From contig CM030336.1 of the NCBI GenBank assembly GCA_017654855.1, forward strand, positions 1,116,001-1,180,000: 64,000 nucleotides of DNA, read 5' to 3'. The notes under the pieces are model-generated. The model was not told the DNA's origin. It searched no databases and saw only the letters and a list, made by a program, of their open reading frames with translations. Numbering within the stretch: position 1 is the first letter of the stretch; every line of letters begins with the position of its first letter. Both the position numbers and the translations under genes were made by a program. The DNA is from Podospora anserina. Its lineage: Eukaryota. Below are positions 19,129 to 46,543 of the stretch, piece by piece.

Positions 19129-21044
19129 CTAGAGCTTGGCGCCACCTTCATCATCATCATCCTCCTCCTCCTTACGAGCGCGAGTGACACTCAACTGACC
19201 CATCAATCTGCTGACCTCCTCCACAGACTCTCCCTCCATGCACTCCCCCTGGTCACCATCAGTCTCATCCTCCACCTCCTCCACCTCCTCCAACACCAAC
19301 CTCCCCCGCCTACCACGACCTTGAACACTCCCACTTCCACTACCCACACTCCCATGCAGGCCAGCCTGCGCTTGCATTAACCTCCCCTCCGTCAAACCAC
19401 CCCTCACGCTCCCCGCAGCTGTGACCGCAGACCCAAACGGATTCGAAGGCGTAGCCCGACTATCATGTCTACTCCCCCTCCAACCCCTCCTCTCCACCAA
19501 CACCCCCTTCACCTCCTTTTTCAGCGTCTTGATCATCTCCTCAATCACATTCTTCCTCTCCCTCACCAACATTTCCACTGCCCCATTCACCATCGACCCC
19601 TGGATGATATCCGCCACCCTCCACTTATGATACAAATTGCCGTGTCCCTTTCTCCTATCCACCTTGACGGGAGAAGCCTCAAAGTAAATGTCGCACAGCA
19701 TGCAAGTGGGCTTGGAACAGCCGATGTACCTCCCGAATTTATCCTCCATGAAGAAATCCCAATGTGCATCCTCCCTGCCAGGGGAAGGACAAAGGGTCTC
19801 CCTGCGGAGGTTGGACAAGAGTGTTACTTCTGCATGGACGGTGGTGATGCACTTGGGGTCTTTGATGGAATTTTTGAGGCCGGCGTCGAAATCCCTGGCT
19901 TGGAGCTGGGGGGAAAAGAAGTCGTAAGCGGCGTGAACTTCAACGTCGGGGGTGAGGCGGTTGAGGAGGTCTTTGCCTGTGCACATTCTTTCCTTGATCT
20001 GGAGGGGGCTGGGGAGCTTAGCTGGGGAGGGGTATGGGATGACTTCGGGGGACTCGAAGAGGTCGGGCCATTTTCCGCGGGCGACAATGAAGACGCGGAT
20101 GGCGAGGGTGTAAGAGTGGAGGCGGCCGATGGCGTGGCGCGTTTCGATCCAAGGGGAAGCGGGGCTGTCCTTCTCTGGGGACGAGTTCGAGACGTTCTCC
20201 GAGGAGGGGGCTTTGAGGCGGAGGAAGGAGGCAAAGGAGGAGGTGTAGGATTTTTTGAGGGCCATGAGGAGGCGGTAGGTTTCTTGGGTGACTGTTGAGG
20301 TGAGATGTTAGTTGCGGACAGACTTGGGACGAAGATAACATTGGGACTTGGCATGGCACATACAGGACAGGAGATCATGGGGCCAAGAGGCCACCGCTGC
20401 CTCGGCAATCGGAAGTAGCTCCCGCAGGCGTCCTGCCATTGTGGCTGGTTTGTGTCAGCTTTAACTCCCATCGATAGATTTCCAGGTGCCAGTAACTTAC
20501 CCTCAGCGCCAGAGTCCTTGGCGCAGCTCTCTAGGCAAAGTCCAATATTGTCAACCAATGTTCTGAGGTACTTGTACAGGCGCCACCGACAGTACACGAT
20601 GACCTTCTTCAACAGACTGTCCGAGACAGCCTTGACCTTGGCTTCGTCTTCAAGATCTTGCCCTTTCATGCTTCCAAGTACTTTCAAGATCTCGTCAGAC
20701 AAAAACTCCTTGACCCTGGCCATCTGTGTCTTGGTGCGACTATTAGAGGCAATCCAGTATTCCACCTGACCAGGTTGGACAATCATGGCGCTCGTGACGG
20801 TGTCTCCCCCATGCTTAGTATCGCAAATTTGCGCAATCTTGTTGACGAAGCACCTATACAGGGCGCGATCTTCGTCGGGGGTGGTAACAATAGAGTCATC
20901 GTCCGACGTATGGGGGTTCGACACATGGGGAAGTGCATCCTTCAGGGCACAGAAGAGGTGAATGGCTCCATAAAGCCGCTTTGCCTGGCTGGGAGCTAGC
21001 GGGACGGGTGTGGAGGTTTGAGCGGGGAGTGTTGCGCTGGGCAT
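19129..21044 (-). CDS. old: OTT_1508-like nucleic-acid deaminase (OLD-type), copy A, about 595 aa
   Basis: Exons 21044-20501, 20444-20364 and 20291-19129 (1788 nt, in frame; GT-AG introns with CTRAC branch sites). Motifs CFVNKIAQICDTKHGGDTVT, VHAEVTLL, YIGCSKPTCMLC, HGNLYHKW. Confidence 0.9.
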
Positions 21045-24423: not shown

Positions 24424-25449
24424 TCAACGACGGCCGTGAACAAGCATATGTCGCTTCATGTTGTCCGCCCTCTGAGTCCGTCCGCAGATCTCGCACCTCT
24501 TCTTGTGCCTTTGGACCCTCTTATCAGCACGAACATCAGCACGGTCACCATGGCTCTTAAGTTTGTGGCGATCCAGATCCTTCTGCTCTGCAAATCCTTT
24601 GCCACAGATGTTGCACTCTGTTGGCCTGCGGTGATTTTTTTGATGCTTTCTCAGCTCACCGGGCAGATTGAACACTTTTGATCCTTTGCACCCAAGATAG
24701 AGACAGTAGAACTTCCCGTCAATGATTGTGTACGGAACTTCAGATTTGGCCGGGTTGGTTTGGCTGGGTGGCTCGGTCATCGAGGCGGGGAGGGGATAGA
24801 TGATAAGATCACGTGCGTTTGCAGCAGGGAAAAGGTCGTTTAGGGTAGGCAGCACATTTATATGGTGTGTGAAATTTGCCGACAGGGTGTCGTTGACGGG
24901 GTCGTTGAAGGAAAACAGGAGGTCGTCGGGTAATGTTGAATCGGAACCATATTCTGACTCATCTGGTGTCAAGATGGTTGAATTGCTGGATATCTCGGAT
25001 GATTGAGACGAAGAGCAAGGAAATCCGAACTCATTGTCGGGTGGCGTATGAAATGAGACCACGGCGATTTCTGGAGTGGAAACGCTAGCTGAATATCCGT
25101 GTGGCGAGCTCTACGAGCTCAGTACTGGGACTTCAGTGCGCATCTCCGCTACAGAATGCGGAAAGTGGGCCAAGGGGTCAAAAGAGCCCCCATCGTAAGT
25201 GATTTGGTGGTTGGTAGTTGCAACTTGTAGGCCTCGTTGCATCATCAGAAGCGATGGGTTCACCGTTACACCTTCGTCAACGTTTTGGGAGAAGGTGTAT
25301 GGCTCCATCGCCATCGCCTGTGAGCCAAGTCCAACCCCTTGCCCTTGAAGGGGAAGGTCAACAATCCAAGGATGCTCCTCATTTTGTTCTGTGAAAGCAT
25401 CTGATTCGGAAACCCAGTTTGGGGACTGGTAACTGTATACGCGCAACCC
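24424..25449 (-). CDS. zao: C2H2 zinc-finger transcription factor (ZAO-type), copy B, with in-frame UAG at 25113-25111
   Basis: ORF-track pieces 25446-25111 and 25062-24424 are in the same frame, separated only by TAG. Three fingers: CLYLGC...HQKNH, CNIC...AEQKDLDRHKLKSH, CEIC...RADNMKRHMLVH. First in-frame ATG is 25314; an intron at 25498-25450 leaves the 5' structure unresolved. Confidence 0.85.
25089..25136 (-). other. Predicted mRNA stem-loop presenting the premature UAG (candidate edited A at 25112)
   Basis: Sense strand reads CTGAA-GTCC-cagtac-TGAGCTC-GTA-GAGCTCG-ccacac-GGAT-a-TTCAG: inner GAGCTC/GAGCTC stem with UAG at the apex, plus outer CTGAA/TTCAG and GTCC/GGAT stems. Confidence 0.7.
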
Positions 25450-26293: not shown

Positions 26294-27935
26294 ATGAGTT
26301 CAGAGGAACAAACAGCCATCACATTGCCACCCAGCATGCGCAAACGATTTTACGAGGCCCTCATGATCATTTGCAGCATGACTCACATTTTTTCAAGAAC
26401 AGAAAACGGCACCAGGTCCCCGAGTCTTGAGCTCGAGGGGGTTGCTGACAAGAACTCACAAGGAACCTTTTTCTGTTTCGTGAACAAGCTTAGCCAGGTG
26501 TGCGACAGTGAGAGAGGGGGTGATACCGTCACCGCCTTTTCGGTCTTGCAACCAGACATCATCGAGTATCGCTTCACTTCAAACAGCAGAACGGAAATAA
26601 GTTTCCAGACAACAACCCGATTTGTGACAAAGCTTCTGAATACCCTTGGAGGAATTTCAGGCCCCGAGCTCCAGGAGGCGCGACGCAATGGAGAGGACTC
26701 CCTTCTGTTCTTGACTCTGATGCAACAAATACTCGAGTTCAACCGTCCCCGCATTACAAAGTTTCACATCGACTACCAAATGGCCAGACACCTCGAATTC
26801 TGCGCCAATGCCTGCACGGATGCAGAGGTAGCGACTCTTCTAAGAGCACTCAAGACTTTGGCTGATGCTTCTCTCGAGCCACTCTTATCTGATTGCGAAT
26901 GTGGGTATCATCAGGTCTTGGAGGAAGCTACACGCTTCATAACGTCACAAGACCCTAACTGACCCCGTTCCAGTTGCCATTAAATGCCAGCTTCTTCTCC
27001 GTACCATCAGCAGTATTTTCCGGAATCCCCACGTTAAGGAATACCTCCGGGAACGTACCCGCGAGGATCGAGAAAAGGCCAACAAGACACCCTGGACTGA
27101 AGTCTACCACTCTCTTGGCCGCTTGCAATCTTACACAATCGCCGTCGCAATTTTCATCACCGCACGCCAGCGCTGGCCCGAACTCTTCGACCCTGGATTT
27201 AAAGTGACCCACGTCCCCTCCAGCACACCCGCTCCTTCTCCCTCAATCAGAGGCTCTCCGGAACGTATCCTTTCACGGCTGACCACAAAGGAGGCCGTTC
27301 TCAAAGCTTTCAAAGAGGGCACCACCGACGCAGCCGGCCACCAGTCCCACCTCACTGATCTGACCAAAAAGCTCGAAAGCACCATCCGATCCAAGTGCAA
27401 GAAATTCCACCCCATCGTTCACGCCGAAGTTCACCTTGCCGATCATATCCTCCGCGAGTTACGCACAAACAACTCAGGACTTCGTTTCTACAACGAAGCC
27501 GCCTTCGGTCGGTACATTGGCACCTCTAAGCCAACTTGTCACCTCTGCCACTCGTACTTTGCCTGTCCATTTCTCTCTTCAACAGGTCGCATTCAAGTCC
27601 GTTCCAGTTCCCACAACTACTACCATAACTGGCGGGTTCCACACGTATATCCGGAGGACGGCGCCGAGGCAGAAAAGATGAGGAATAAGGTGATGGGGTG
27701 GATGATTGAGGATGTGAAGGCGGAGGCGGAAAGGACGGTGGTGGAGAGGTTTGCGGTGAGGAAGGGGCATGATAGTAACACGTACCCTTCCATGCCGGAT
27801 ACAGATTCGGTTGCTTCTATGCAGGTTGGTTATGGGGGGAGCCAGTCTGGTGCTGATGAATCTGTGAGAAGGCTGGGCGCGATGGATGATATAATTGCTA
27901 GTTTTGGGGGGATGAGGGTGAGTGTTGAGGAGTAG
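26294..27935 (+). CDS. old: OTT_1508-like nucleic-acid deaminase (OLD-type), copy B, about 522 aa
   Basis: Exons 26294-26900 and 26974-27935 (1569 nt, in frame). Motifs CFVNKLSQVCDSERGGDTVT, VHAEVHLA, YIGTSKPTCHLC, SHNYYHNW. Clear but divergent paralogue of 19129-21044. Confidence 0.9.
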
Positions 27936-29741: not shown

Positions 29742-30755
29742 ATGGATTCCCCAGAGGGCGAGTTTGACGGCAACGATTTTGCCAACAACCTCTTCAGCGA
29801 TCTCGCCCCCCTCCTGACGCTTTTCGGGGAGCAAGTCACAAAACAGTTCCTGTCCATGAGTGTGGGATGGGCCGACAACGTACTCTTGGCAATGGGCCCC
29901 CTGGGTATCTTGACCATTGTTGTGAGCGCCATTCGTGTAGCGGGTGAGACCGTACCAAACCTCAAGGCGCTCATTGGCAGAGCAAGGGAGGACAGGGCCA
30001 GCGTTGAAGTTGAGTTACTCTCTTCAACATCTAGGGAGGTTTGCGAACTGTGGACAGGAACCCAAATCGTTCGAGTACGCGGACAACCCCTCATATCTCA
30101 GCCGTTCATCATGACCGACACGGGTAACGTCTATCCCCTGTGGAATGATGTGGCGCAGGGGACTTTTGAGGTCAACTTCATGGCGCAAGACTGGGATCGC
30201 GAAACCAGCTTGTTGGCAAAAGTGCCGCCCAACCTTGGCTTGAATATTAGCGGTGCTATCCCTTCGAACCGTGAAATGTGGATGTGGGCTGCTCTGGGAA
30301 CTGTCCTGCAACTAGCCTCGCTGGTTGTGAGCGGGACTGTCACTTATCGTTGGAACTTGGCCCAGGTCGAAGTTCCCACCACCACATACGGATATCCCTG
30401 CTATCTTCTGGGCACTCTGCTTTTGACTCTCGGGGTTCTCCTGTGCGGACATATAGTTGAGACTGTCAGTAAAGAAAGGACTTTCAGATGTAAGGCAAAA
30501 ATGCGAAAGAGAGTGCGCATTTTTCGCATTCAACTGGCCGCCACCGTAAACGACCAGCACTTTGACAGTTATCTTATCTTCAACTCCCCCGAGAATCCTG
30601 ACGTCTATGCACCATTCTATCAGGGCATGAAGAAGAATACTCGGTATGTTCATTACCCTCCAGCCCGAATACCGCTGTTTTCTAACATCAATATTTGCGA
30701 GATATTATGCAATTGCAGGATCAGCGCTGTCATTCATGGGCTTTGTCACACAATA
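29742..30755 (+). pseudogene. Membrane protein of a fungal family usually bearing C-terminal ankyrin repeats; 3'-truncated by a Fot1 insertion
   Basis: Conserved N-terminus DFANNLFSDLAPLLTLFGEQVTKQFLS...LAMGPLGILTIVVSAIRV...ELLSSTSREVCELW and hydrophobic segments. Probable intron from 30644. Interrupted at TA 30754-55; no continuation seen beyond the transposon. Confidence 0.7.
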
Positions 30756-33067
30756 ACGTACTTTATAAGCGAGTCGGTCATATAAGTGGGCCGGTCACTT
30801 TTCGACCGCGACGCGTCCTCCTACACTCAATATCAACTTTCTCTACAACCCAACATGCCTCCTACCTTAAATGAAGCCAGGATAATCTTAGCTCTTAAAG
30901 CTATTTAAAAGACTCCGAAATTAAGCCTCCGGGCCGCAGTAAAGCTATATAATATACCATTCTCAACCCTCCGTAACCGACGCGCCGGCCGGCCTACACG
31001 ACGCGATACTACGCCCAAATCGAAGAATCTCACTTAATCCGAAGAGGATACTATTATTTAATGTATTATTAAGCTATATACGAGAGCTTTTCCACCAAGA
31101 TTACGTAGTATAGAAAATATAGTTAATTAATTATTACGTATATACGACGCGGCTTTTATTAGTAAGCTCTAGGTATATAACTTTATTAAACGTTAGCTAT
31201 AGTTCTATACGCGTTTTACGCGTAAATAAAATTATTAAAGGGCTAAGTACGAAGATTTAAAGGTTATAACCGAGTAGTTTACGTTAGTACGAAATATTAA
31301 AACTAAGTACGGTATTATAAATAATAATATTTATAATTTTAACGAAATTAGGTTTATAATAAATATTATTTTTATAAGTATAGTAATTACGATATCGGAC
31401 GGTTTTAATAAAGTAAAATTAATTTAATTTAATAACCGTAAATAAATAACGGTAATTTAAAGAATTAATACTTTTAATTAAACTATTTTTCTTTTTATTA
31501 TTTTAACCGTATAATACTATTTTATTAATTAATATACTAAATATAATTTATAATTTATTTAATATATTATAATTATTAATAATAATTAAATTATTAATTT
31601 AAAAAATAAAATTAAATTAAGTATTTCGATTATTATATAGCGTCCTATAAAAAGGATAAATATCGATTATTAATCTTAAACGGTTACGAAAGTTATTATT
31701 TAACCGAATTCGAATATTATTATTAATAAACTAACGTTATTACGCTTTATATACCTCTATACTCTTCCTACCTTCTCTAATTACTCGATATTAATTACTT
31801 TAGGCCGTTAAAATAAGTGTACGGTCGTTAAATTAAGGACTTAATATATATATAGATATTAATTATATAAGTAAGCTCGAGTTCCTTTATACCTTCCGCG
31901 AGGCTTTTTTTGCCTTTATAATAAAGAAAAATATATAGGGTAGCTTTGCGGGTGCTAGCCTTATACCGTATGATTTAAAGAAGGTAATTTCTAAATTAGA
32001 TATAAAGCTTCGTACGTTAATATCTTTAAATTTACGGCCCGGTACTATATAACTTTGGGTCTCTTAGATACTATATAACCCTCGAGAAACTAACTTATAA
32101 TTAACGTTTATTAAGACTCGCATTACTAACTATTAAAATAACTTCCCGACTTTAATAATAATTATAATAAACTAACTTACTAAAAGTATAACGGTTATAA
32201 TATATTAAGTGGCCCTCTTGCAGGTAGAGGTCTCTTCGCTCCGTAAGGCTAATAAGGCACTAAGCAAACGCCGGAGAGTTAAAAAAATACGCGTGAGACT
32301 TGGAGGGTTACTTACTGTACAAGAAGCACAAAATCTACTGGATTAGAAAGCCGTGGATGGGGAGATATGACGAACCCCTGTACAGAACCTCTGAAAGGGA
32401 TACGGGTTGAAGGTAACTTCTGACAATTGGTCCGGTGTAGCTAAACAGTGCACAACAAGATATCTCGATATAAACACAAAATGCCGTGAATACAAGCTTA
32501 AATTGCATACTGCGGAACTATCTATCTACACCAGCCAGTTCCTCCGTATATATAGACTTTAGGACCGTGAGGTGCTTACCCTGCTATGGCCCCGATCACT
32601 CCTAGCACATTGCATCCTGCATTGTGCTCGCCGTGCTATGCCTCTGATCATCCTTAGCATCTTGCATCCTGCAGACTGCTCGTGAGCCTTGGCGCTATAG
32701 CACCTTTGTCCAGGCCTGATTGGCTTGTTCCCTAACTTCCTTAATAATTGGCTAAGGACGTCCTGCGCCCCACATGTGGCGCGACCTGCCGTTGGGTTAA
32801 CTGTGACAGGAGAGAGTATAAGAAACGCAGCCGGATAGTAGTAGTACAGGGGGGGGCTCGTACGAAGGTTCGGTGCTGTGGTGTGTGCGGCAAGCCTGGC
32901 TATAATGCACGCACTTACCAGGAGGCTGCAGAATCATCTGATTCAGCTGTTTCTGATATAATTATAGTTAGTTCCTAATATTGGTGTATTACAATTGAGG
33001 GTAATTATAGTAGGGTAGTGAAAAGTGGCTCACTCGCTTATATGGCTCACTCGCTTATAATGTACGT
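30756..33067 (+). mobile_element. Fot1/pogo DNA transposon, copy 2, containing a solo LTR
   Basis: TA-flanked TIRs ACGTACTTTATAAGCGAG... / ...CTCGCTTATAATGTACGT. Length is 1864 bp after removing the LTR and one TSD. Collinear with copy 1. Confidence 0.95.
32366..32808 (-). mobile_element. Solo LTR family A (crapaud-like), lightly RIPed
   Basis: 443 bp with T(A/G)TGAC...TGTGACA ends and a perfect 5-bp TSD GGAGA (32361-65, 32809-13). Confidence 0.95.
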
Positions 33068-33254
33068 TAATGTACGTTACTTTTTGCCGCCCGTTTTATT
33101 TTTAAGTTTTATTTTCTGCCGGCGCTTATGCGCCTAAGGTGCATTGGAAGACGGAGGGGAGTGAATGTAGAAGATGGAAAAAGAAATAGTCCTTCACTTT
33201 TACTTGTCCCGAATTCTTCGCAATTCAAAGGCCATTCTATTGGTATGCCCTTTA

Positions 33255-33986
33255 AGCACTGTGACTAACCGGGAGGAGCAGCTCAAACATAGATCCTTGG
33301 TCAGGAAAGCTTTAGCTACGCTCTCGCCCACGCTAATATATTCCCTCCATTATACCCACCTCATCAGTTTTATATTTGTTCTTCTTCTTGATCCAGGTCA
33401 CGGTATTATATAGGTTAAAGAAGCCGTTGATCTTTTCCGGGGTAGCTCCGTTAATGCGGGAGTAGTTGATCTCTTGCCTAGTTTAGTTTTAATCTCTGGG
33501 CGCCTTCGAATAAAGTGGGATACCCAGTGTTTTCCGGGCTTCTTTTCTCCCTAGCGCTCCAGTATATGGGTAGCTAGAGCAAATGGGGGCCAACGGACTG
33601 GTCGTTGGGTCTTCTATTAGGGCTCAAAGTCTGTGTACGTCAAGGAGAATGGAAAACGAATCTGGACCACTATACTTGAGTGTATCTCACAGGATGGCCG
33701 ATGTCTCACGCCCTACGTTATTTTTAAGGGCAAGAAGATTCAAAAGCAGTGGTTTAACGAAGACTACCGTGAACACTGGTATATTAATGCCACAGAGGAA
33801 GGCTGGACTAGCAATGACATTGCTCTTATTTGGTTAACGAAAGTCTTTATCCCTGAAACCTAACCTGACGATAATTCCGGACCACGGCTTCTTAATTACG
33901 ACGGTCACGGTAGCCACTATACCGACGACTTTATAATTAAATGCTTCTGGAATAATATTTACCTTCTTTTCTTACCTCCCCACATA
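33255..33986 (+). mobile_element. Relic of a second pogo/Fot1-type transposase (HTH-CENPB + DDE_1) with an internal inversion
   Basis: Plus strand: WTTILECISQDG...PYVIFKGK, GWTSNDIALIWLTKVFIPET, RLLNYDGHGSH, LLFLPPH. The KHWVSHFIRRRPEI...TDEVGIMEG part is on the minus strand at 33343-33581. Confidence 0.85.
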
Positions 33987-35848
33987 ACGTATATTATAAG
34001 CGAGTCGTATATATAAGCGAGTCGTATAGTTTCTACCACGACGCGTCCTCCTTACACCTAATATTAATTTTTTCTATAACCTAACATGCCTCCTACTTTA
34101 AAGGAAGCCAGGATACTTTTAGCCCTTAAGGCTCTCTAAAAGGACGAAAAATTAAGCCTCCGAGCTATAGCTAAGCTTTATAACGTACCACCTATAACTC
34201 TCTCTAACTGACGCGCCGGCCGGCCTATACGACACGATACTACGCCCAGATCGAAGAAGTTTATTTAATCCGAAGAAGAGACTATTATTTATTATATTAT
34301 TAAGTTATTTACGCGAGCTTTTTTATTAAAGTTACGTAATATAAAAAATATAATTAATTAATTATTACGCATACGCGACGCGCTTCCTATTAATAAACTT
34401 TAAATATATAATTTCGTTAAACGCTAGCTATAGCTCCGTATACGTTTTACACGTAAATATAATTATTAGTAAGTTAAATATAAAAATCCGAAAGTTATTA
34501 CCGAATAATTTATATTTATATAAAATATTAAAGTTAAGTACAGTATTATAAATAATAATATTTATAATTTCGACGAAATTAGGTTTATAATAAATATTAT
34601 TTTTATAAATATAATAATTATAACCTCGAACGGTTTTAATAAAGTAAAATTAATTTAATTTAATAATTATAAATAAATAATAATAATTTAGAAAGTTAAT
34701 ATTTTTAATTAAACTATCCCGCCCTTTATTATTTTAATTATATAATATTATTTTATTAATTAATATACCGAGTATAATTTATTATTTATTTAAAATATTA
34801 TAATTATCAATAATAATTAAATTATTAATCCAGTAAATTTAAATTAAATTAAATATTTTAATTATTATATAACGTTTTATATAAAAAGTAAATATTAATT
34901 ATTAATTTTTAATAATTATAAAAATTATTATTTAATTAAATTCGAATATTATTATTAATAAAATAATATTATTACGCTCTATATACCTCTATATTCCTTC
35001 TACTTCCTTTAATTACTTAATATTAATTATTTTAAGCCACTAAAATAAATATACGGCCATTAAATCGAGGGCTTAATATATATATATATTAATTATGTAA
35101 ATAAATTTAAATTCTTTTATATTTTTCGTAAAACTTTTTTTATTTTTATAACGGAAAAAAATATATAGAGTAACTTTATAGGTACTAACTTTATATTATA
35201 TAATCTAGAGAAAGTATTTTTTAAATTAAATATATAGTTTTATACGTTAATACCTTTATTTTTAAGGCCGGGTACAATATTTCTTTAAGTATTTTAAATA
35301 CTATAAAACCCCCGAAAAATTAATTTATATTTAATATTTATTAAAACTTATATTATTAATTATTAAAATAATTCCCCGACTTTAATATTAAATATTATAG
35401 ATTAATTTACTAAAAATATAATAATTATAATACACTAAATAGCCCTCTTATAAGTAAAGGTCTCTTCGCTCCATAAGGCTAATAAAGTATTAAGTAAGTA
35501 CCGGAAAGCTAAAAAAATACGTATACGGCTCGGAGCATCACTTACTATGCAAGATATATAGGATCTATTAGACTAGAAGGCCGTGGGTGGGGAGGTAGTG
35601 GAAGAAATATAGCCGGATGGCGGTAGTGCAGGGGGGGCTTATACGACGGTTCGGTGCTGTAGTATGTGCGGCAAGCCTAGCCATAACGCGCGCACTTACT
35701 AGGAGGCTCGGGAATTATCTAATTCAGCCGTTTTTGATGTAATTGTAGTTGCTTCCTAATGTTGTTGCGGTATAATTAAGGATAGTTGTTGTAGGGTGGT
35801 GGAGACTGTACGACTCACTTATATGTACGACTCGCTTATAATATACGT
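33987..35848 (+). mobile_element. Fot1/pogo DNA transposon, copy 3, full length, heavily RIPed
   Basis: 1862 bp; TA at 33985-86 and 35849-50; TIRs ACGTATATTATAAGCGAGTCGTA... / ...TACGACTCGCTTATAATATACGT. Confidence 0.95.
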
Positions 35849-36139
35849 TATAAGTTTTTCACTCAGCCTACACGGCACGGTTTTCCTATATAAATAGCAC
35901 CAAAAGTCCCGGCGCACTCGTTACAAAAAAGGGTAAAACGGTGTAAGAAGAATAAAAATATATTAATCTATTAGCCAGCAAAAGCAAGGCAAGTCTCGCG
36001 GTAGTAAACTTTTAAGTCATAGACTGTACAAAACACGAATACCGTTCTCTATCAGATTATCCACCATGTGATGGGGTTGCCCTCGAACTCCTGTCCATCT
36101 GCTTAAAAACGTACCTCGCCTCGCGCCCGGCAATCTCCG

Positions 36140-38467
36140 TTAAGTACGAATTCGGTGTTTCGAACGGTTTATTTCTAGGGGCCCAAAGAGTTGCGCGTCT
36201 GCCTCACTATCACCACGCTTCCTCTTCGGTTTTGAGAGCCTGGAAACCGCTCGAGGCTTGGGAGGTGGGGAGAGGTGGGCTCGGTCGAAGTCGATGATCA
36301 TTATGCGACCACGCTCGGCGTTCCAGAGATAATTGGCCCTATTTTCATCCCCATGAACAACACCCTCGTTCCAGATAGCCGTCAATGACTCCCTCTTCAG
36401 CGTCTCGGCGTCGTCCATGCTAGCGCTTGGCGTCTGGCCCGCCCACGACATAAGCATCATATGAACAACAAACTCAAGCCCCGGGAGAATGTAGCCACGA
36501 TCGAGGCGCACGAGGCCCAGATACACCGGTACCACGTCGCCCTGAAGATGATCAAGCTGTGCGTAGACCCGGCCTTCGTGCTCCAAACGACTGAGGCGGT
36601 CCTCCAGTGTTCCTTTACCAACAAATGTGTAGCCGTATGGAAGAAGCTCCAGCTTAAAAAGCCAGCCCATCGCTCCTCTCTTGCCCCAGAAGTCCACCAT
36701 CCGGCATCCCTTGTAGGGACTCAAGAGAAGCTGCTGCTCCACCATATCGGTAAAACGATGGGCATTGACGGGATGCCGAGAGGAGCCATCGAAGCGATGT
36801 AATGAGACATTGGGGCACTTCTCGTCCAGGTCTTTCCCTCTCTTGAGACCTAATAGGCACGCTTGTGTGCAATATTGCTTGGTGGGCCCCGAGTCAGCCA
36901 TGGCGATATCCCCGTCCTCGCCACCACTCGACGGACCGCGCTTCCGCTTGTTAGCCGCTAGCCTTAAGCGAGATGCGCCGGGTTCCGAATGGTCCTCTTC
37001 GTCGTCATGCTCGTTGCTTTGGGGGAGTACCGCTGCCGGTTTGCAAGACGACTGAGACCGTAAGGCTACATTCCGACCGGTCGGTTCCGCTTTGGACGTA
37101 TACTCTGAGATGTCCGTGTTCTGCGACGACGGCGCCGACGATAACTCGGCGGGCTCGAGCCCAAGATAGGCCACATCCGCGTACGACTCCGACCATGTTT
37201 TTAGTGTCGCCTTGGCTATAGACAGTGCTGTTTCGAGAGATTGTCCCTCGAGAGCTTCGGACTGAAAGCTGGACAGGCAGAAGCTGATTAGTTGAGCCAC
37301 TGCGGTGTGGGATAGCCGGTCGGTCCAGTCGTTGGTCGGCTCGCCCACATCGTCGGCCGGCAGGCACGGATGACAGTACAGCGTTTGCCAATCATCTCTG
37401 TCAACGTAGAGGAGTAGCAAGCACCGGCCCGCAGCAACATAACCATATGATACCCCGTAGGTGATCATGTAGTCGAAGACTTGCGTCAGTGCCATGGCGA
37501 TTAATGCCTCGGCCTGCTCCCGGCGCTGCACCTCCTCGTCGCGGCTGAGCTTGTCGTCGTTGATGCGTGCGACAACCTCGTGGAACAGGTGTTCCTTCGC
37601 TGTAGCCGACCGAATATACTCGATAGCGACTTTATGGGCTGCCTTGTAGTCGTATATAAAGGCGTGGGTCTGGCCTCCGCCGGGTTGCATCCGTATACCG
37701 ACTCCGTCAGGCTGTCTGTTCGAGCATATATATTTCCTCTTGGACGTAGGGCGCTTATTCGGCCCGGCTTGTTGGCGTCGCTCCAAACTCCCATCGCTGG
37801 TGTTGTCATCTGCACCGCTACTCCCGTCATCTTTTTGTGTGAGCTCGCGGAGGTTAGCGCTGAACCGAAACTCGGGGCATATCGATGCTTTGCCCGCCTC
37901 CTTATGCGTTGCAAGAACCTTGAGGATCCCCTGCACTGGGCGCTCGACTGCATCTACCTCAAAACGGTCGATCGCTTTCTCGTTACCCGCTAGATGATCC
38001 GAGATAATCGTCCCAAGGCTCTTAGTCGTGTTGGCTGGTTCGAAGAGCTGCCTTTGACCACAGATACTCTGCACAAGATCGAAATAATGTGGGTGGAGAA
38101 CGTTGGCAAAGTAGGTCCAAGGACGAAGTCGCTTGGGGTAGTACTTGCCCACGACTTTCGTATAGCCCGTAGAATACCTCGATGTGTTGGTAAGTCGTAG
38201 AGCGTTGTAGAGATGCCTGTGGCAGTTGTGCAGGTATTCGAGGAACGTGGTGTTTCGATGCTCCAGCTGAAGCCGCTCCCTCTCGCATCGCTCTTGCGCC
38301 TCTCGTGCCTTGGCTTCCTCCTCTCGTGCCTTGGCTTCCTCCGCTCGTGCCTTGGCTTCCTCCGCTCGTGCCTTGGCTTCCTCCGCTCGTGCCTTGGCTT
38401 CCTCCTCTCGTGCCTTGGCTTCCTCCAGCTCACGAAGGAGCTGTGCAATCCTGTCTTTGTCGGACAT
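36140..38467 (-). CDS. Spok: Spok-family spore-killer (meiotic drive toxin/antidote) protein, 775 aa; context suggests Spok2
   Basis: Intronless ORF beginning MSDKDRIAQLLRELEEAKAR. N-terminal heptad coiled coil; PD-(D/E)xK-like nuclease motif (PD253-254...YDYK275); Cys cluster C533/C537/C551; kinase-like domain (HGD707ENRAN, IID726FD). Which paralogue it is cannot be proven by eye. Confidence 0.95.
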   Translation of the reverse strand: MSDKDRIAQLLRELEEAKAREEEAKARAEEAKARAEEAKARAEEAKAREEEAKAREAQERCERERLQLEHRNTTFLEYLHNCHRHLYNALRLTNTSRYSTGYTKVVGKYYPKRLRPWTYFANVLHPHYFDLVQSICGQRQLFEPANTTKSLGTIISDHLAGNEKAIDRFEVDAVERPVQGILKVLATHKEAGKASICPEFRFSANLRELTQKDDGSSGADDNTSDGSLERRQQAGPNKRPTSKRKYICSNRQPDGVGIRMQPGGGQTHAFIYDYKAAHKVAIEYIRSATAKEHLFHEVVARINDDKLSRDEEVQRREQAEALIAMALTQVFDYMITYGVSYGYVAAGRCLLLLYVDRDDWQTLYCHPCLPADDVGEPTNDWTDRLSHTAVAQLISFCLSSFQSEALEGQSLETALSIAKATLKTWSESYADVAYLGLEPAELSSAPSSQNTDISEYTSKAEPTGRNVALRSQSSCKPAAVLPQSNEHDDEEDHSEPGASRLRLAANKRKRGPSSGGEDGDIAMADSGPTKQYCTQACLLGLKRGKDLDEKCPNVSLHRFDGSSRHPVNAHRFTDMVEQQLLLSPYKGCRMVDFWGKRGAMGWLFKLELLPYGYTFVGKGTLEDRLSRLEHEGRVYAQLDHLQGDVVPVYLGLVRLDRGYILPGLEFVVHMMLMSWAGQTPSASMDDAETLKRESLTAIWNEGVVHGDENRANYLWNAERGRIMIIDFDRAHLSPPPKPRAVSRLSKPKRKRGDSEADAQLFGPLEINRSKHRIRT
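38300..38425 (-). repeat. Six 21-bp tandem repeats encoding the Spok coiled-coil heptad EEAKAR(E/A)
   Basis: Unit C(T/G)CTCGTGCCTTGGCTTCCTC at 38300, 38321, 38342, 38363, 38384 and 38405. Confidence 0.97.
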
Positions 38468-39200
38468 TGCGTTCGCTAGACTCGGCTGCTTAGGGCTGGA
38501 AGGGATATCGTGGTGGTGTATGGCGGCGATTGGCTGGCGAGAGCTTCCGTCGGTCTGATGGCTCGAGGTCTATATTATATGTCTGTCAGCCATCAGCGAA
38601 GCCTTGATGTGTCAGTCTCATCAGATAAGGAGAAGTACCTCGATCTTATACAGAGCCTAGATATCGAGTTAATATGTGCGGGGTAAATGTGGTGGTCGCG
38701 TCGAGGGGGAGAGGAGATGGGGTCTGGTTTATGTAGATATGCGGAAGTCAAGCGCGAGGTTAAGCAGTAGTCCTGCCACGCCTGTTACGGCTGGCAGGTT
38801 CTCTGAGGCAAAGGACTACAGAGAAGAAAGAAGGAAAGGCTCCGCCAAGCCAGCGCTTGCAGAGCTTCGTGGTGCAAGCTGGTGGGGCGCTTGATAAGAT
38901 AAGGTCCTCGAATGTGGAGCCACGCTGGAAGTGGGGTGCCAACGCCATACCCCCCCAAAAAAAACCCTCGCTTCCTAATACCAATAAAAAAGCGAGCTTT
39001 ACAAAAAGAAATTGCTGCTTCTAAGACTGGAATTCGTGCTGGACTGCATCACTTGCCTCGAAGTCTTGTCGAAAAGCCTTATTGACGAAGGCTTTTGTTG
39101 AAAATACCAACAGCCACGTATACATAGTATCATAGGTTAAAGCGCTTACAATCGGAGCTTGAGAAGCTGTAGGGTGGGAAATTTATTAATTCAGCTGCAG

Positions 39201-39335
39201 TGAAATGATGAGAAAAATACACAAAACAACCACAACACCACGAATATACCCTCAACAGGCTTCTGAATGAACATACCTGCGTGACAGTGAATCGATCGCA
39301 GGCCGCACTCCACGTAGGACAAAGAAAAAACGCTA
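39201..39335 (-). mobile_element. LTR family C fragment, cut by Fot1 copy 4
   Basis: TGAAATGATGAGAAAAATACACAAAACAACC... matches the first ~135 bp of 46544-46906 and 49296-49658. Confidence 0.9.
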
Positions 39336-40577
39336 ACGTATTTTATAAGCGAGTCGTGGGTATAAGCGAGCCGTGGGTTCCTTAGCGCGACGCATCCTCT
39401 CTCTCCTAAACATCATATTTTTCCATAACCCAACATGTCTCCCCCTTCAAAGGAAGCCAGAGTAATCTTAGCCCTTAAAGCTCTTCAAAACAACGAGGAA
39501 TTGAAGCTTAAAGCCATAGCTAAGCTTTATAGCGTACCACTTTCAACACTCCGTAACCGACGCGCTAGTAAGCCTGTACGACGCGATATTACGCCTAAAT
39601 CGCGCCGTTTTATAGATTCCGAAGAGAAGATTATTATTTAATATATTATGGAGCTAAATGTGTAAGCTTTTTTACTAAAATTATGTAGTGTAAAAGATAT
39701 AGCTAACTAATTACTATGCGTACGCGACGCGCTTCCTATTAATAAGCTTTAAGTATATAACTTCGTTAAACGCTAATTATAACTCCGTACGCGTTTTACG
39801 CGGAGGTACGATTATTAAAAGGCTAAGTGTAAGGGTTTAAAGGTTATTAATAAGTGGTTCGCGCTTATATAGAATACTAAAGTTAAATATAGTATTATAA
39901 ATAATAATATTTATAATTTCGATGAAACTAAATTTATAATATATATTATTTTCTCGGGTTATTACGGTTCTAGAAGACAGTGGGGCCACGAGGGACCAAT
40001 CAGGACTAGACCGAGCGATCGAGCGGGGCTCACGGTCCGAGTGGACGGAACGGACTAATAAAATAGGGACCGGGGACCGCGGCGTGGCTCACGGTCCACG
40101 GTCTAGTATCGGCTAATCAAGAGTGGACCGAGGACCGTTTATAAGTTAACGGTCCACGGTCTTAAGGTCTATATATATGGAGGAACTAGCTAGTGTAGAT
40201 AGATAGTTCCGCAATATAGAATACTAAGTTACAATCGTGGTATTTTAGCTATTATAATTAAGATATCTTATTATATACTATTTAGCTACACCGAACTAAT
40301 TATTAAAAGTTACCTTTAACTAATATCCTTTTTAGAGGTTCTGTATAGGGGTTCGTCACACTAAATCGAGGACTTAATATATATATATATTTATAATATA
40401 AATAAATTCGAGTTCCTTTTTACTTTTCGTAAAGCTTTTTTCGCTTTTATAATAGAGAAAAATATATAAGGTAGCTTTACGGGTATTAGCTTTATACTAT
40501 ATAATCTAAAGAAAATACTTTTTAAATTAAATATTAAGCTTCGTATATTAATATTCCCGACTTTATAGCTTAGTATT
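39336..40577 (+). mobile_element. Fot1/pogo DNA transposon, copy 4, fragmented (39336-39959 and 40361-40577)
   Basis: TA plus left TIR ACGTATTTTATAAGCGAGTCGTGG; transposase start MSPPSKEARVILAL at 39435. Interrupted by LTRs; no right TIR seen. Confidence 0.9.
39960..40360 (+). mobile_element. LTR family A variant
   Basis: TATTACGG...GGGGTTCGTCACA; 3' ~190 bp shared with the other family A LTRs, 5' half different. Confidence 0.85.
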
Positions 40578-40625
40578 TATTACGGTTTATTATAACCCTA
40601 AGGTATATACGAGAATAACGATTAG

Positions 40626-40994
40626 TATAACGAACCCCTATACAGAACCTCTAAAAGGGATACGGGTTAAAGGTAACTTCTAATAATTAGTTCGGTATAG
40701 CTAAATAGTATATAATAAAATATTTTAATATAAATATAAAATACCGTAAATATAATTATAAATTATATATTATAAAACTATTTATCTATATTAGCTAGTT
40801 CCTCCGTATATATAGACCGGTTTATTATTATTATTATTAATAATAATATCGATTATTACTCGTCGTTTATCGAAAGCTAATAATAATCGTGATTATTACC
40901 TTTAGCACTAATAATAATCCGACTTCCCTACTTTTTTATTCTAATAGTTAAACGGTCGCGCCCCGCGCTCCCCGTTTATATTAGGTCCGTAATA
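40626..40994 (-). mobile_element. LTR family A variant (3' LTR)
   Basis: Shared family A end at 40626-40817; polypurine-tract-like AGAGGAGGGA immediately upstream on the minus strand (about 41000-41009). Confidence 0.8.
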
Positions 40995-41064
40995 TAATAT
41001 CCCTCCTCTAAATTAACGTCTCGTTAGCCTAATCTTATTAACTATATACGCTTTTCTCGTCTCC

Positions 41065-43746
41065 TATCACGGTTTAGAAAAAGCGGGGTCGCTCGGGCTA
41101 GTAAGAACGAGCGACGGATAAGTGGGGCCTGTGGAGCAGGGAATAACACGGACTAGGGGATCTAGGAGTTGGAAGCTAGATCCATGGGATCTAGGAAAGA
41201 ATAAATAGATTTAAGTACGGAAGTACTTAGAGGTTAAGGTCTATATATACGGAGGAACTAGCTATTATAAATAGATAGTTCCGTAATATATAATTAATAA
41301 TTTATATTTACAGTATTTTATATTTATATTAAAATATTTTATTATACGCTATTTAGCCGTACCAAACTAATTATTAAAAATAGCTTTTAATTAATATCCC
41401 TTTTAGAGGTTCTATATAGGGGTTCGTTATATATTATATACTTACTTTAACTCTATTACGGATAAGTTAAAAGCGTCTTTTTACTACTATAGCTTAACCC
41501 GAGAACGTTTAAATAAAAGGTGTCCCGCCTAGCTTAACTATCGAAAGACTTTCTACGGTAAACGCTAGGTCTAGAGTCACTACGGCTTAATAGCTTATCA
41601 ATCGCGTTAAAGAGCTTAAGGCCGAAGCCTAATAGATTAGCGAGTAGGTTTTTACTCTCTTAGCGGCTAGGCCTACGTACGTAATTAAGCTTCCGGTACT
41701 AAAGTACTATAGAGGCGGAAAGTTAAAGCTTAAAGGTTTTTTAATTTAGTTTAAAACTTACTTTCGTTATTACCCGGAATAATTTAATATAGAGAAGTCG
41801 AAAGTAATATACGTAGCTACCCGGCTTAAAAATAAAACTTTTATTTAATTCGAATTTATTTTTAACGATTATTACGAAGTGATAGTAAAGGATTAGGAGG
41901 AGATTATTATTTAGTATTATTAATGTGTAGGTACTACTAAGTGCCCTACTTACTGCCCTACAAATTGATATTACAGTGGGCAGTATTGCTATAAGCAGTA
42001 ATGGAACTTCCCGGCTTTGATCCCTTTAGAATATTCTTTATAAGGGACCCTTAAAGGCTTACAGAGCTACTGTGGCCTAAGGCTTAGTCAATGGATACTA
42101 GAACCTTCTAAAGTAGCTATAGGCTTACGTAGTAAGTTGCTACAATAGTGTGATTTACAGGGCACCTTTACTGCTAAAGGTTCTATAGATTTCCGTAAGT
42201 CTACACTAGACCCACCTAAGCCCACTAAATACCCAAAGTGGTATAGGGGCTTCCAGAGCCTACAGGACCCACAGTAGGCCTACGAAGGCCTATATATAGA
42301 CCTCTCCTCTCTCCTATAGAATAGTTCCTTTCTTTCTTTCCCTAAGGGCAAAAGCTTAAGGCTAAAGCCAAAGGCCAAGGCCAAAGGTAATAAAGGCAAT
42401 TCTTATTCTTTATACCTCACTGTATTATAGTGCTTTACCTTCCTTCGGCACTGCCGTCGTATCCTCCCGCTTCCGCTTACGCACTGCTATATTTTACAGC
42501 AACCCTATATAAATTCTATATTATAGGCCTATCAGGGCTTACCAGCTAACAAGTATTTTCGGAATTACCGAGCTTTTAAAGTAAAGTTTAGGGAAATATT
42601 TAAGGAATATAATAAAGGTAAATATATATAAAAAAGGTTCGCGAATCTATAGTAAATACGTTTAGTAACGGAATACACTATTTAGTTTAAAATTAATAAT
42701 TTACGTAACAAAATTAACGATAAGGGGTTAATATAGACCTTTTATAATAATTTTTAAAAAAAATAAAGAATAAATTATATAGGGAAAAAAGGTTTAATAC
42801 TATTCATAAATATATTAATATAATTATATAAATTAATAATAAAAAATTTTAACGTTATACGGAAAAAAGAAATTATAATAATCGGGGTTACTACGGAAAT
42901 TACCGCTTCAATAATAAATATAAGTAATAATATTTAATTATTAATTACTCCGGTATTATATATTTAAAATTTATAAATATTAATATTATATAGTAATAAA
43001 AGTTATAAAATTAAGGCTAGGGTAAAAATAATTATAATAAAGTAAAATATTTTAAAAAAAAATTATTAGGTATTTAAATAATTTAAATAAAAAAAAGAAA
43101 TTACTATAATAATTATTATATTAAGGGGACCGAGGGTTATAAAGGTTATAGTTATCGGGTATTAATAAAATAAAGTAATAAACTTTAAAGAAAACTTTAA
43201 TTAATATATTAAATAAAAGGAAGTAAAGTTTTAGGAGTTGCGGGAAATAATAAAAAAATTAAAGGCGAAGTATAAAAAAAAAGACCTTTAGATATTAATA
43301 TTTTAAAATCGATTAATATAAATTACTATAAAAATTATTACGGAGATCGTTAAAAATAATAATATTATATAATAGGGAAGATTTATTAAATAAATAATAT
43401 AAAAAAAATAGTATGGTAAATATAAAATTATTATTTTATAAAAAATATTATTATTTATAAAGTTTATATATAAAAACTAAAAAAAATATTAAAAAAGTAA
43501 AAAAATCGTTAATATCGGAATCGCGAAATCATTAAAAAATATACTTATACTTATATAGTATATACCTTATAAAAAAATACGGTATAACTTTATTTTAGGT
43601 ATCCGGAATATCGGAAAGTACTTTAGTTTTAATATATTATATATAAATATATAAAATACTATTAAAGTAAGTTACTATATAGTTACTGGCCGGTATATAA
43701 AGTAAGTAAGTAAAATAAATTATAGTTAATTAAAAGGATTATAGTT
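41065..43746 (+). mobile_element. Gypsy retrotransposon 5' part: family A LTR (41065-41431) plus RIPed gag region
   Basis: LTR TATCACGG...GGTTCGTTATA followed by gag-like relic LKGFLI*FKTYFRYYPE*F...KSKVIYVATRL near 41730-41830. Confidence 0.75.
41918..42551 (+). mobile_element. Solo LTR family B (copia)
   Basis: 634 bp, reverse complement of 43747-44380; 5-bp TSD AGTAT (41913-17, 42552-56). Confidence 0.95.
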
Positions 43747-46543
43747 TGTTAGCTGGTAAGCCCTGATAGGCCTATAATATAGAACCTATACAGGGTTGCT
43801 GTAAAATACAGCAGTGCGCAAGCGGAAGCGGGAGGATACGACGGCAGTGCCGAAGGAAGGTAAAGCACTGTAATACAGTAAGGTATAAAGAATAAGAATT
43901 GCCTTTATTACCCTTAGCCTTGGCCTTTGGCCTTAGCCTTAAGCTTTTGCCCTTAGGGAAAGAAAGAAAGAAACTATTCTACAGGAAAAAGGAAAGGTCT
44001 ATATATAGGCCTTAGTAGGCCTACTGTGGGTCCTGTAGGCCCTGGAAGCCCCTATACCACTTTGGGTATTTAGTGGGCTTAGGTGGGTCTAGTATAGACT
44101 TATAGAAATCTATAGAACCTTTAATAGTAAAGGTGCCCTGTAAATCACACTATTGTAGCAACTTACTACGTAAGCCTATAGCCACTTTAGAAGGTTCTAA
44201 TATCCATTAACTAAGCCTCAGGCCACAGTAGCCCTGTAAGCCTTTAAGGGTCCCTTATAAAGAATATTCTAAAGGGATCTAAGCCGGGAAGTTCTATTAC
44301 TGCTTATAGTAATACTGCCCACTATAATATTAATTTGTAGGGCAGTAAGTAGGGCACTTAGTAGTACCTACATATTAATACCCCTTCTGTGGGAGTGCTA
44401 GGTGCCCACTTACTAGGCCGTAGGGCCCTTATAAGTACTGGGCTTCCGGTAATTTATCAGCTCTAAAAAGCGCTAGAACTTAGGTGCTGGTAGGGCCTTT
44501 ATTAGGCCGTCGGCTGCCATATCCTTTATAAATACGAAGGATATAGTAATATTTCCTTCTATAACACTCTCCCTAACGCCCTAGAATTTAAGGAGCGTGT
44601 ACTTGGTACGGTTATGGTGCTTCGGGTTATAGGCTGTCTCTATAGTACCTTAGTTATCGCACCTTAGGGGGGTAGGGCTCTTTAGAGAGCGCTAAATTTC
44701 ACTATATAGCCTTCTAAGCCACAGGGCTTTCCGGTTACTTTCGATTAAGGTCGTATATTCGGCTTTAAGGGTGCTATAGGCAACCGTAGGCGCTCGTTTA
44801 GATTTCTAGCTTATAGGGCTACCTTTTACTAAAAATAAGTAGCCGTAAGTAGACCGAGTAGTAGTTTTATAGCTAGCGAAATCGCTATCGGTATAGCCTA
44901 TAGGCTTAATACTATCCGTACCTCCTAACTATATAGCTAGGTCCATCGTACTATATAGGTAGCTTAGCAGCTTTTTAGCTGCTTTTAGGTGGGCTACCTT
45001 AGGTGCTTGTAGGTGCCGTGAAAGCCATTGAACGGAGTGGGTAATATCGGCCCGGGTTTAGGTTATCGGGTAGGTAGTGGTGCCTAGTAGGCTCTAGTAT
45101 AGCTTAGTGTTAGCCTTATTTAGTGGATTAGAGGGAGTTTCGGGGCCTGTAAGGCCTAGAGAGAGCGGTAAGGCGGGTACGTGAGTACTAACTTCGAAGT
45201 GCTTAACAGCTTCTTGGATATAGGCCTTTTGGTAGAGCCAAAGTAGCCTTTTACGCTTATTTCTTTTAATTTGGACCCCGAGAAAGAACTTAGTAGGGCC
45301 TAAGTCCTCTATATCGTAGGCCTAAGCCAACTATAGCTTCAGGGCCTAAATATCTATAATAGAGGGTCCAATTAGTAGGTAGTCGTCGACGTAGCTTACT
45401 ATAAAGATACCTTTGTGAGGGTTATAGTAAGTAGCCGAGTCTAAGACTAGTGGACTATAGCCTAGGGTTTTGGTTAGTGCCGTAATCTTTTATTGCTATA
45501 GGTGGGGGGCCTGTTTTAGGCCGTATAAAGACCTTTTTAGTACTATAACTTGGTCCTTCGAAGGGTCCTAGCAGTATTGTTTTAGAAGGTTTATAGCGGT
45601 TTAGCTACTAAGGCTATATTCGTATAGGCCTTCAGGGACTTCTATATATATATCGGAGTCTATACTAGCGTTAAAAAAGGCCCCAACGAAATCGATTTAC
45701 TCAATTTTTAAATCTTCTTCAGTTATAATAGTTAGTAAAACCCGCTAGGTAGGTAGCGCTATAGTAGCTGTAAAGGTCTCGGTAAAGTCGGTTCCGGGCA
45801 CCCGTTAGAAGCCTCTAACTACTAGCCGGGCCTTAAATTTAATAATTTGGCCCTATAAGTCCTTTTTTAGCCTTATAGACCTATCGGCTAGTAATAGGCC
45901 TTTTTGGAGCCTATAAGCGGTTAATAAAGTAAAAGGTTTTGGAATTAAGTAGCTACTATAGCTCATTGAAGGAGGCCTGTAGCCACTAGTCCTTTAGTAG
46001 GTGCTTTAGGGCCTGTTTAAAGGTCCTAAATTCTGTGTTAATAGAAGTAGTGTTGTAGCTAATAGTTATAATAGCCTAGTTAATAAAATAATTTACTAGA
46101 GTAGTGGTATCTATAGTATCGTTATTTACCACTTCGAATTCCTCCTTTTGTAATTTAGTAGCCTATAGAAGTTGTACTTCGATATTGGTAGGCTTTGGAG
46201 GTGCTGTTATAGTAGGTGCCCCTTCTGTAATTATAGGGGGTTCCCCTTCTAAAGGCTCGATGTCTTTTAGTTCTAGAAGCCTTAGTTGCGATGTAGAGGC
46301 TATAGGTCCTTCTAAATAAGGCTTATAATCTTCGTATAGTTTGACGAATAGCGTTTAGATTACTTACCGGTAGCCTAGCCACACCAAGTAAGTGTTATTG
46401 CCTAGTACGGCTAGAAGCTTGCCTTTAGTAGCTTTAGGCTTTAGTTTCCTTGCGGTAATGCGTTTTTTAGGCGGTGTAAGTACTAGAACTTCAGCGCTTA
46501 TAGCCCTATAAGGTCCGAGGTCCGGGACGTGAGGGGCCTGTAA
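43747..46543 (-). mobile_element. Copia retrotransposon 3' part: LTR B (43747-44380), PPT, RNase H/RT relic
   Basis: Minus-strand VSYVDDY near 45380-45400 and GYTDSDFA near 44875-44898; PPT CAGAAGGGG next to the LTR; truncated by LTR C at 46544. Confidence 0.9.

Follow-up and report, generated by a model that had tools for sequence, protein, structure and literature searches.

A single reading frame in Podospora anserina very probably encodes an intact Spok2 meiotic driver at its native locus

INTRODUCTION

A long uninterrupted reading frame lying among mutated transposon copies raises three questions: what it encodes, which member of its family it is, and whether it could still act as that family does. 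We asked these of a stretch of 64,000 nucleotides (nt) of Podospora anserina DNA (GenBank assembly GCA_017654855.1, contig CM030336.1, positions 1,116,001 to 1,180,000 of the forward strand), referred to below as the window, with coordinates counted from its first letter. An earlier note, made from the letters alone, had recognised there an intact Spok meiotic driver at 36140..38467 and had favoured Spok2. Our analysis indicates that the gene is very probably (a rough probability of 93%) an intact Spok2 at its native locus, combining poison and antidote in one protein.

Work on Spok2 since 2014 has included its cloning, deletion and mutation as well as population surveys. Deletion of the gene and crosses established that this one gene both kills and resists (PMC4022471). 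The SPOK proteins are described as consisting of a coiled coil, a nuclease domain, a Cys cluster and a kinase domain (PMC6660238), with a repeat of variable length (section 9 of that paper).

RESULTS

A complete reading frame with the diagnostic residues of SPOK proteins

Translation of the minus strand of 36140..38467 gave 775 codons from ATG to stop with no internal stop, in a window that contains zero N letters; by our own arithmetic, random sequence would give 775 consecutive sense codons with a probability of about (61/64)^775, roughly 1e-16. The uninterrupted frame of 775 amino acids (aa) announced by the earlier note was thereby borne out, and each of the residues that it had singled out (K275, C533, C537, C551, D707 and D726) was located in the translation. 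D273-Y-K275 is found within IYDYKAAHK, D707 inside HGDEN and D726 inside IIDFD. The published motif C-x3-C-x13-C-x5-H-x7-H has an exact match starting at C533, so that C533, C537 and C551 are its three cysteines, and a QxxxY motif occupies residues 329-333 (Q329 and Y333). The parts of the gene are as follows.

36140..38467, minus strand: Spok2 coding sequence (CDS), 775 aa, intron-free; ATG-to-stop frame with the PODANS_5_10 match described below.
38302..38431, minus strand: 21-nt tandem repeat, 6.1 copies, encoding six EEAKAR(A/E) heptads; the variable-length repeat within the N-terminal coiled coil.
37838..38257, minus strand: domain 1, aa ~71-210; packs with the nuclease domain in the predicted model.
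37184..37720, minus strand: PD-(D/E)XK nuclease domain, aa ~250-428, with P253-D254, D273-x-K275 and Q329xxxY333; putative killing domain, by analogy.
37643-37645, minus strand: K275 codon.
36773..36871, minus strand: Cys/His cluster C533-x3-C537-x13-C551-x5-H557-x7-H565; required for resistance in SPOK3.
36263..36772, minus strand: kinase-like domain, aa ~566-735, with D707 and with D726 in an IDFD motif; putative resistance domain, by analogy.
36347-36349, minus strand: D707 codon (putative catalytic Asp).

Five other open reading frames (ORFs; 36389-36802, 37501-37953, 37505-37993, 37990-38475 and 38022-38429) overlap the gene in other frames and were taken as by-products of coding sequence rich in guanine and cytosine (GC).

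Identity with the Spok2 protein of strain S

We then determined which Spok gene this is. A search of a protein collection, in which 8000 candidates were scored, returned 87 proteins with E≤0.001, all 87 of which carry the precomputed Pfam label PF27653. The top match was PODANS_5_10 of P. anserina S mat+ (721 aa, 1629 bits), which is Spok2, and the runner-up was the Swiss-Prot entry "Meiotic driver SPOK4" (758 aa, 89% identity). The homology search that the earlier note had proposed thus returned Spok2 as the best match and not another paralogue. In the MAFFT alignment, the window protein and PODANS_5_10 agreed at each of the 721 aligned columns (0 mismatches). Residues 374-427 (54 residues) are missing from the database model of PODANS_5_10, a gap that fits a mis-called intron, and the old annotation at the Spok2 locus has been called erroneous (PMC6660238, section 9); these residues of the window protein are comparable only with SPOK4 and one Triangularia protein.

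The numbering of the protein agrees as well. The putative catalytic residues of Spok2 are numbered Asp707/Glu708 in the cited part of PMC4022471, and the window protein has D707-E708 and Y343 exactly at the published Spok2 positions. Besides the protein, identical over the 721 aligned residues, the gene of strain S (Pa_5_10, or PODANS_5_10) and that of the window have in common the stop codon, the intron in the 5' untranslated region (UTR), and a neighbour, Pa_5_20, that is cut by a Tc1/mariner-like element. The two differ in a silent G at CDS nucleotide 1194 in the window and in the longer transposon field on its far side.

Transcript structure and allele

Contigs of four public runs were compared over 35900-39100. 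One run was DNA-like and three, from three studies, were RNA-like; this status is a software guess, no listed run being on record as RNA, and we read the latter as RNA because their contigs show a spliced joint and end near the limits of the gene. The following features were obtained.

38570..38638, minus strand: 5' UTR intron of 69 nt, GT..AG, with its 3' end 102 nt upstream of the ATG (RNA-like contigs).
38468..38846, minus strand: 5' UTR in two exons, to the reach of the RNA-like contigs (38796-38846), which cannot fix the transcript start.
35944..36139, minus strand: 3' UTR, to the reach of the RNA-like contigs (35944-35975).
37274, minus strand: CDS nucleotide 1194, G, codon CTG, Leu398, silent.

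The intron was spliced in all three RNA-like runs and in none of the one DNA-like run; the RNA-like contigs reached no further than 35944-35975 on one side and 38796-38846 on the other, and the DNA-like run extended past both limits. The Spok genes are known to share a conserved 5' UTR intron (PMC6660238, section 16). The sole CDS difference among the runs was at 37274, which reads G in the window and in the DNA-like run but A in each of the three RNA-like runs. A silent A1194G variant occurs in several strains, which "behaved like strain S" according to the cited part of PMC4022471. We equated its position 1194 with ours because A/G is silent there, at the third position of a codon, and because no other CDS position differs among the runs, the nucleotide numbering of the paper not being fully consistent (the "position 1029" given by Grognet for Tyr343Cys is nucleotide 1028 here). 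The window therefore belongs to the silent A1194G allele class, and its protein is the strain-S protein.

An alternative is that the intact frame protects without killing, like the allele of strain A, or is not expressed. Such a protecting, non-killing allele does exist in nature, and it carries Tyr343Cys and an Arg-Cys insertion after residue 346 (PMC4022471, in the part cited). The RNA-like contigs represent the A1194 allele and not the G of the window, and the neighbourhood is rich in transposons and mutated by repeat-induced point mutation (RIP). However, the window gene is wild type at Y343 and D358 and has no Arg-Cys insertion, which excludes the D358N variant as well as the allele of strain A that does not kill, and its protein equals that of the killing-competent strain S at every aligned residue. 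The G1194 strains crossed like S (PMC4022471, in part), and the RNA-like contigs of the other runs showed no differences in the promoter, UTR and intron region except at two low-depth sites. The DNA that holds the gene has a GC content of 56%, compared to 27-33% in its flanks, and this, together with the open frame, indicates that it escaped RIP. We consider a gene that is silent or only protective very unlikely. From the identity of its protein with the experimentally tested one of strain S, the Spok2 of the window would be a functional killer/resistant allele.

Comparison with the other Spok paralogues

SPOK4 is 89-91% identical to the window protein, from which it differs by 54 substitutions counted before its frameshifted C-terminal tail; the published number of substitutions between SPOK2 and SPOK4 is 53 (PMC6660238, Table 2). 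SPOK4 has two copies of the heptad repeat, versus six in the window gene, and is 28 residues shorter there; the other differences are small indels and the tail, in which the two proteins diverge from residue 752 on. When the window was searched with tblastn, the SPOK4 tail matched 36161..36060 in a different frame, which means that the 3' frameshift of Spok3 and Spok4 is absent here and that the stop codon of the Spok1/2 type is used. In the alignment, K247, C506, C510, C524 and D680 of SPOK4 correspond to K275, C533, C537, C551 and D707. With tblastn, Spok2, SPOK4 and the Triangularia homologue each matched one locus only, and no other Spok copy was found within the window.

For SPOK3, the comparison was made through the coordinates in PMC6660238 and not by aligning its sequence. 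The paper gives a PD-(D/E)XK span of 219-240, a QxxxY at 294-298, and K240, C493/C497, C511 and D667 (sections 17-18). The nuclease span falls on D254..K275 and the QxxxY on 329-333, an offset of +35; with an offset of +40, the Cys cluster and D667 fall on C533, C537, C551 and D707. SPOK1, SPOK3, SPOK4 and the Spok2 of the window have a common architecture with the same catalytic or mutated residues. The earlier note had also named a SPOK3 residue D686, which it matched to D726. Its offsets for K240, the cysteines and D667 agree with the published coordinates, but D686 occurs 0 times in the main text of PMC6660238.

That the gene is Spok1, Spok3 or Spok4, or a chimera produced by gene conversion, would be conceivable on general grounds, the paralogues being as close as 89-91%, Spok gene conversion being documented (PMC6660238, section 9) and SPOK1 and SPOK3 having stood outside the comparison. 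Against this are the 0 mismatches in 721 columns to PODANS_5_10 versus the 54 substitutions to SPOK4, the six heptads versus two, the exact fit of the published Spok2 residues D707/E708 and Y343, and the neighbour Pa_5_20; Spok1 is moreover published as a protein of 734 aa that is 87% identical to Spok2 (Grognet 2014, in part). This reading is extremely unlikely, and the name Spok2 favoured by the earlier note stands on the identity of the protein, the residue numbering, the Spok1/2 stop codon and a Pa_5_20 lying 5.3 kb away.

The locus and its flanking transposons

The surroundings of Spok2 contain the following features.

29742..30785, plus strand: PODANS_5_20 (Pa_5_20), frame running into the transposon end; 5.3 kb from Spok2.
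30766..32560, plus strand: transposon copy A, RIP-mutated, Tc1/mariner-pogo-like (HTH_psq, weak DDE_1); truncates Pa_5_20.
33995..35852, plus strand: transposon copy B, same family as copy A, with both terminal inverted repeats; ends ~100 nt beyond the Spok2 3' UTR.
39334..40818, plus strand: transposon copy C, same family as copies A and B; its left end lies ~0.5 kb upstream of the Spok2 transcript.

PODANS_5_20 is identical to the ORF in the window except around database residues 103-128 (18 mismatches and 30 gaps), which is probably a difference in the gene model (splicing). Its frame continues into copy A at the terminal inverted repeat, as expected from the published truncation of P_5_20 by a Tc1/mariner-like element beside Spok2 (PMC6660238, section 9); the element name discoglosse is that of the paper, and our own evidence consists of inverted repeats and of remnants of HTH_psq and DDE_1. 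The three copies have one orientation, are RIP-mutated and have at each end a doubled TATAAGCGAGTCGT motif. Spok2 lies in a 3.5-kb island of unmutated DNA (35853-39333) that fills the gap from the right end of copy B to the left end of copy C. Pfam scans in six frames, in which stops were read as X, covered 30700-36139, 38468-47000 and 47001-55500 and recovered transposon remnants only: HTH_psq and DDE_1 at 30.9-34.0 kb, and RIP-degraded remnants of a copia-type RVT_2 on the minus strand at ~45.2-45.9 kb and ~50.3-51.1 kb. Beyond 38569, the window has no ORF of at least 130 aa.

The earlier note had argued from the missing tyrosine-recombinase captain that this is the stand-alone Spok2 locus and not the Spok block of Enterprise. 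The locus was named correctly, but the argument from the captain is weak because a Spok block of 74-167 kb (PMC6660238, in part) could exceed the 64-kb window; it is the Spok2 identity, the Pa_5_20 neighbour and the literature that point to the stand-alone locus. Enterprise carries Spok3 and Spok4 but not Spok2 (PMC8092012, in part). A position inside a Spok block of this giant transposon is extremely unlikely: a 64-kb window need not include the tyrosine-recombinase gene Kirc, and a degraded copy of it could hide in DNA of 15-28% GC or in 1-30699 and 55501-64000, which lay outside the six-frame scans, but the Spok blocks contain only Spok3 and Spok4, with Spok2 outside any block (PMC8092012, in the part cited), the published Spok2 flank Pa_5_20 is 5.3 kb away, and DUF3435 or another tyrosine recombinase had no match in a search covering 29 of the 35 ORFs of at least 130 aa, the Spok2 protein and the six-frame scans of 30700-55500 outside the gene.

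The bracketing of the island by copies B and C in the same orientation makes a composite transposon possible in principle. That the stand-alone Spok genes arrived, or still move, as the cargo of such a cut-and-paste element, independently of Enterprise or any Starship, is an unlikely idea, if somewhat less so than the alternatives weighed above.

Conservation and predicted folds

Conservation was assessed in an alignment of 48 homologues with 32-91% identity. K275, Q329, C533, C537, C551, H557, H565, D707 and D726 were invariant, and P253, D254, D273 and Y333 were at least 90% conserved. The AlphaFold2 model of the full-length protein (mean predicted local distance difference test, pLDDT, of 71) has one long helix at aa 4-70 and ordered domains separated by disordered linkers at 211-249 and 429-529, similar to the published layout of SPOK3. 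The domain plan given by the earlier note (coiled coil, nuclease, Cys cluster, kinase) agrees with PMC6660238 and with the predicted models. Lys/Arg-rich patches are found in three predicted disordered segments: KRPTSKRK (aa 238-245), NKRKRG (506-511) and KPKRKRG (746-752). Judging by their composition, they are candidate nuclear localisation signals, consistent with the accumulation of SPOK proteins in nuclei reported in the cited part of PMC4022471.

When the full-length model was compared to the PDB with Foldseek, all 46 matches listed were protein kinases, over ~160 columns and with a best E of 4.3e-6. A separate model of aa 70-430 (pLDDT 82, predicted template modelling score 0.84) was compared with 48,161 representative chains using VIA-align, which warns that best Z values of 7-8 are common for models with no true match; the nuclease matches, with their root-mean-square deviation (rmsd), included the following.

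BpuSI, type IIG enzyme: Z 9.6, rmsd 3.9 Å, 153 aligned residues.
DrdV: Z 8.3, rmsd 2.8 Å, 138 aligned residues.
Vibrio vulnificus HsdR fragment 3h1t: Z 7.3, rmsd 6.4 Å, 127 aligned residues.

Among the rows listed with Z≥5, 13 of 16 were titled nuclease or restriction enzyme. The HsdR match agrees with the best HHPred match reported for SPOK proteins, which was V. vulnificus HsdR (PMC6660238). Altogether, the predicted fold of aa 70-430 aligns with the N-terminal PD-(D/E)XK nuclease domains of type IIG/IIL and type I restriction enzymes (BpuSI, DrdV and HsdR) at Z 9.6, 8.3, 7.3 and 5.9, and the D...DxK and QxxxY motifs are present, whereas the identity is 8-13% and Spok2 has no helicase or methylase partner. 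Protection differs too, since in Spok2 it is attributed to a fused kinase-like domain and in restriction enzymes to DNA methylation (PMC9972908, in part). The models thus predict a protein-kinase domain at the C terminus of Spok2 and a restriction-endonuclease-like module towards the N terminus.

Domain 1 of the SPOK proteins was assigned no function by Vogan 2019 (PMC6660238). The alignments with restriction enzymes span residues 9-335 of the aa 70-430 model and so cover both domain 1 and the nuclease domain. Domain 1 packs confidently with the nuclease domain in this model, and the two may form one nuclease module split by the disordered loop at aa 211-249. Domain 1 holds the invariant residues T74, L79 and H83 and the nearly invariant E77.

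Other features of the window

In the transposon field on the far side of Spok2, a direct repeat of 118 nt (39214-39331 and 46556-46673, 90% identical and 7.3 kb apart) encloses copy C and the RVT_2 remnant at ~45183-45867 on the minus strand; its two copies may be the ends of a nested long terminal repeat element. The same AT-rich field has an inverted repeat of 635 nt (41918-42552 and 43746-44380, 95% complementary) with a spacer of 1193 nt. Across 56000-64000, the GC content is only 15-17%, far under the rest of the window, presumably as a result of extreme RIP.

The gene-rich part of the window has two ORFs with OTT_1508-like deaminase domains, at 19129-20307 on the minus strand (E 1e-17) and at 26943-27935 on the plus strand (E 6e-17), which lie a few kb from each other in opposite orientation and appear to be paralogues. 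Further neighbours, all on the minus strand, are an ankyrin-repeat ORF (12910-13305, in a stretch of 43% GC), an ORF with a GRDP-like domain (4731-5252) and a C2H2 zinc-finger ORF (24424-25110).

DISCUSSION

How the Spok2 of the window would kill and protect can be sketched from mutants of its relatives. In SPOK3, K240A abolished killing and kept resistance, D667A and the cysteine mutants were toxic unless the wild-type protein was present, and residues 1-490 were enough to kill (PMC6660238, section 18). In Spok2 itself, a D707A/E708A allele cannot withstand its own toxin (PMC4022471, in part), and SPOK1 D680A caused DNA damage in Escherichia coli and yeast (PMC9972908, in part); D680 of SPOK1, like that of SPOK4, is the equivalent of D707 of Spok2. 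Taken together, the SPOK3 and SPOK1 mutants make it most likely that the nuclease module damages DNA and that the Cys/kinase module counteracts this in cells expressing the protein. By analogy, the single 775-aa protein would be both poison and antidote. Its restriction-endonuclease-like PD-(D/E)XK module (D254, D273 and K275) would damage nuclear DNA and so kill, and its Cys/His cluster and kinase-like domain (D707 and D726) would neutralise this toxicity in cells still making Spok2. In a cross to a strain lacking Spok2, the spores that do not inherit the gene would die, leaving two-spored asci. We infer killing, resistance and DNA as the target for the gene of the window from this literature.

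Several of our observations weigh against an intact Spok2 at its native locus, or against the domain functions proposed for it. The identity was established by alignment with PODANS_5_10 and SPOK4, SPOK1 and SPOK3 standing outside. The evidence for splicing comes from the A allele, carried by runs whose RNA status was guessed by software, whereas the window has G at 1194. Spok2 kills with incomplete penetrance (PMC6660238, section 56). On the far side, towards Pa_0_1630, the second published flank of the locus, the transposon field is at least 25 kb long here versus the 11 kb drawn for strain S; the transposon content on that side varies among strains (PMC6660238). As to the folds, a Pfam set without PF27653 gave only APH on Spok2, at 21.1 bits and under its cut-off of 23.2, and a sequence search of the PDB produced a chance-level match only (E 0.95). 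With the aa 70-430 model, Foldseek returned 0 matches at E≤0.001, so that the nuclease resemblance comes from VIA-align, whose rank 2 was a mitoribosomal protein.

Both the gene and the system to which it belongs were already known; the earlier note had itself called the system known and not novel. Its value is that of a positive control: working from the letters alone, the earlier note picked out a genuine meiotic driver made of a single gene and gave the correct paralogue and residues. To what was known of Spok2, the present analysis makes small additions, namely the G1194 allele class and, for this haplotype, precise positions for the 5' UTR intron and for the ends of the flanking transposons. 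A further addition is a hint at the level of predicted folds, which would place the "domain of unknown function" of the SPOK proteins in the nuclease module.

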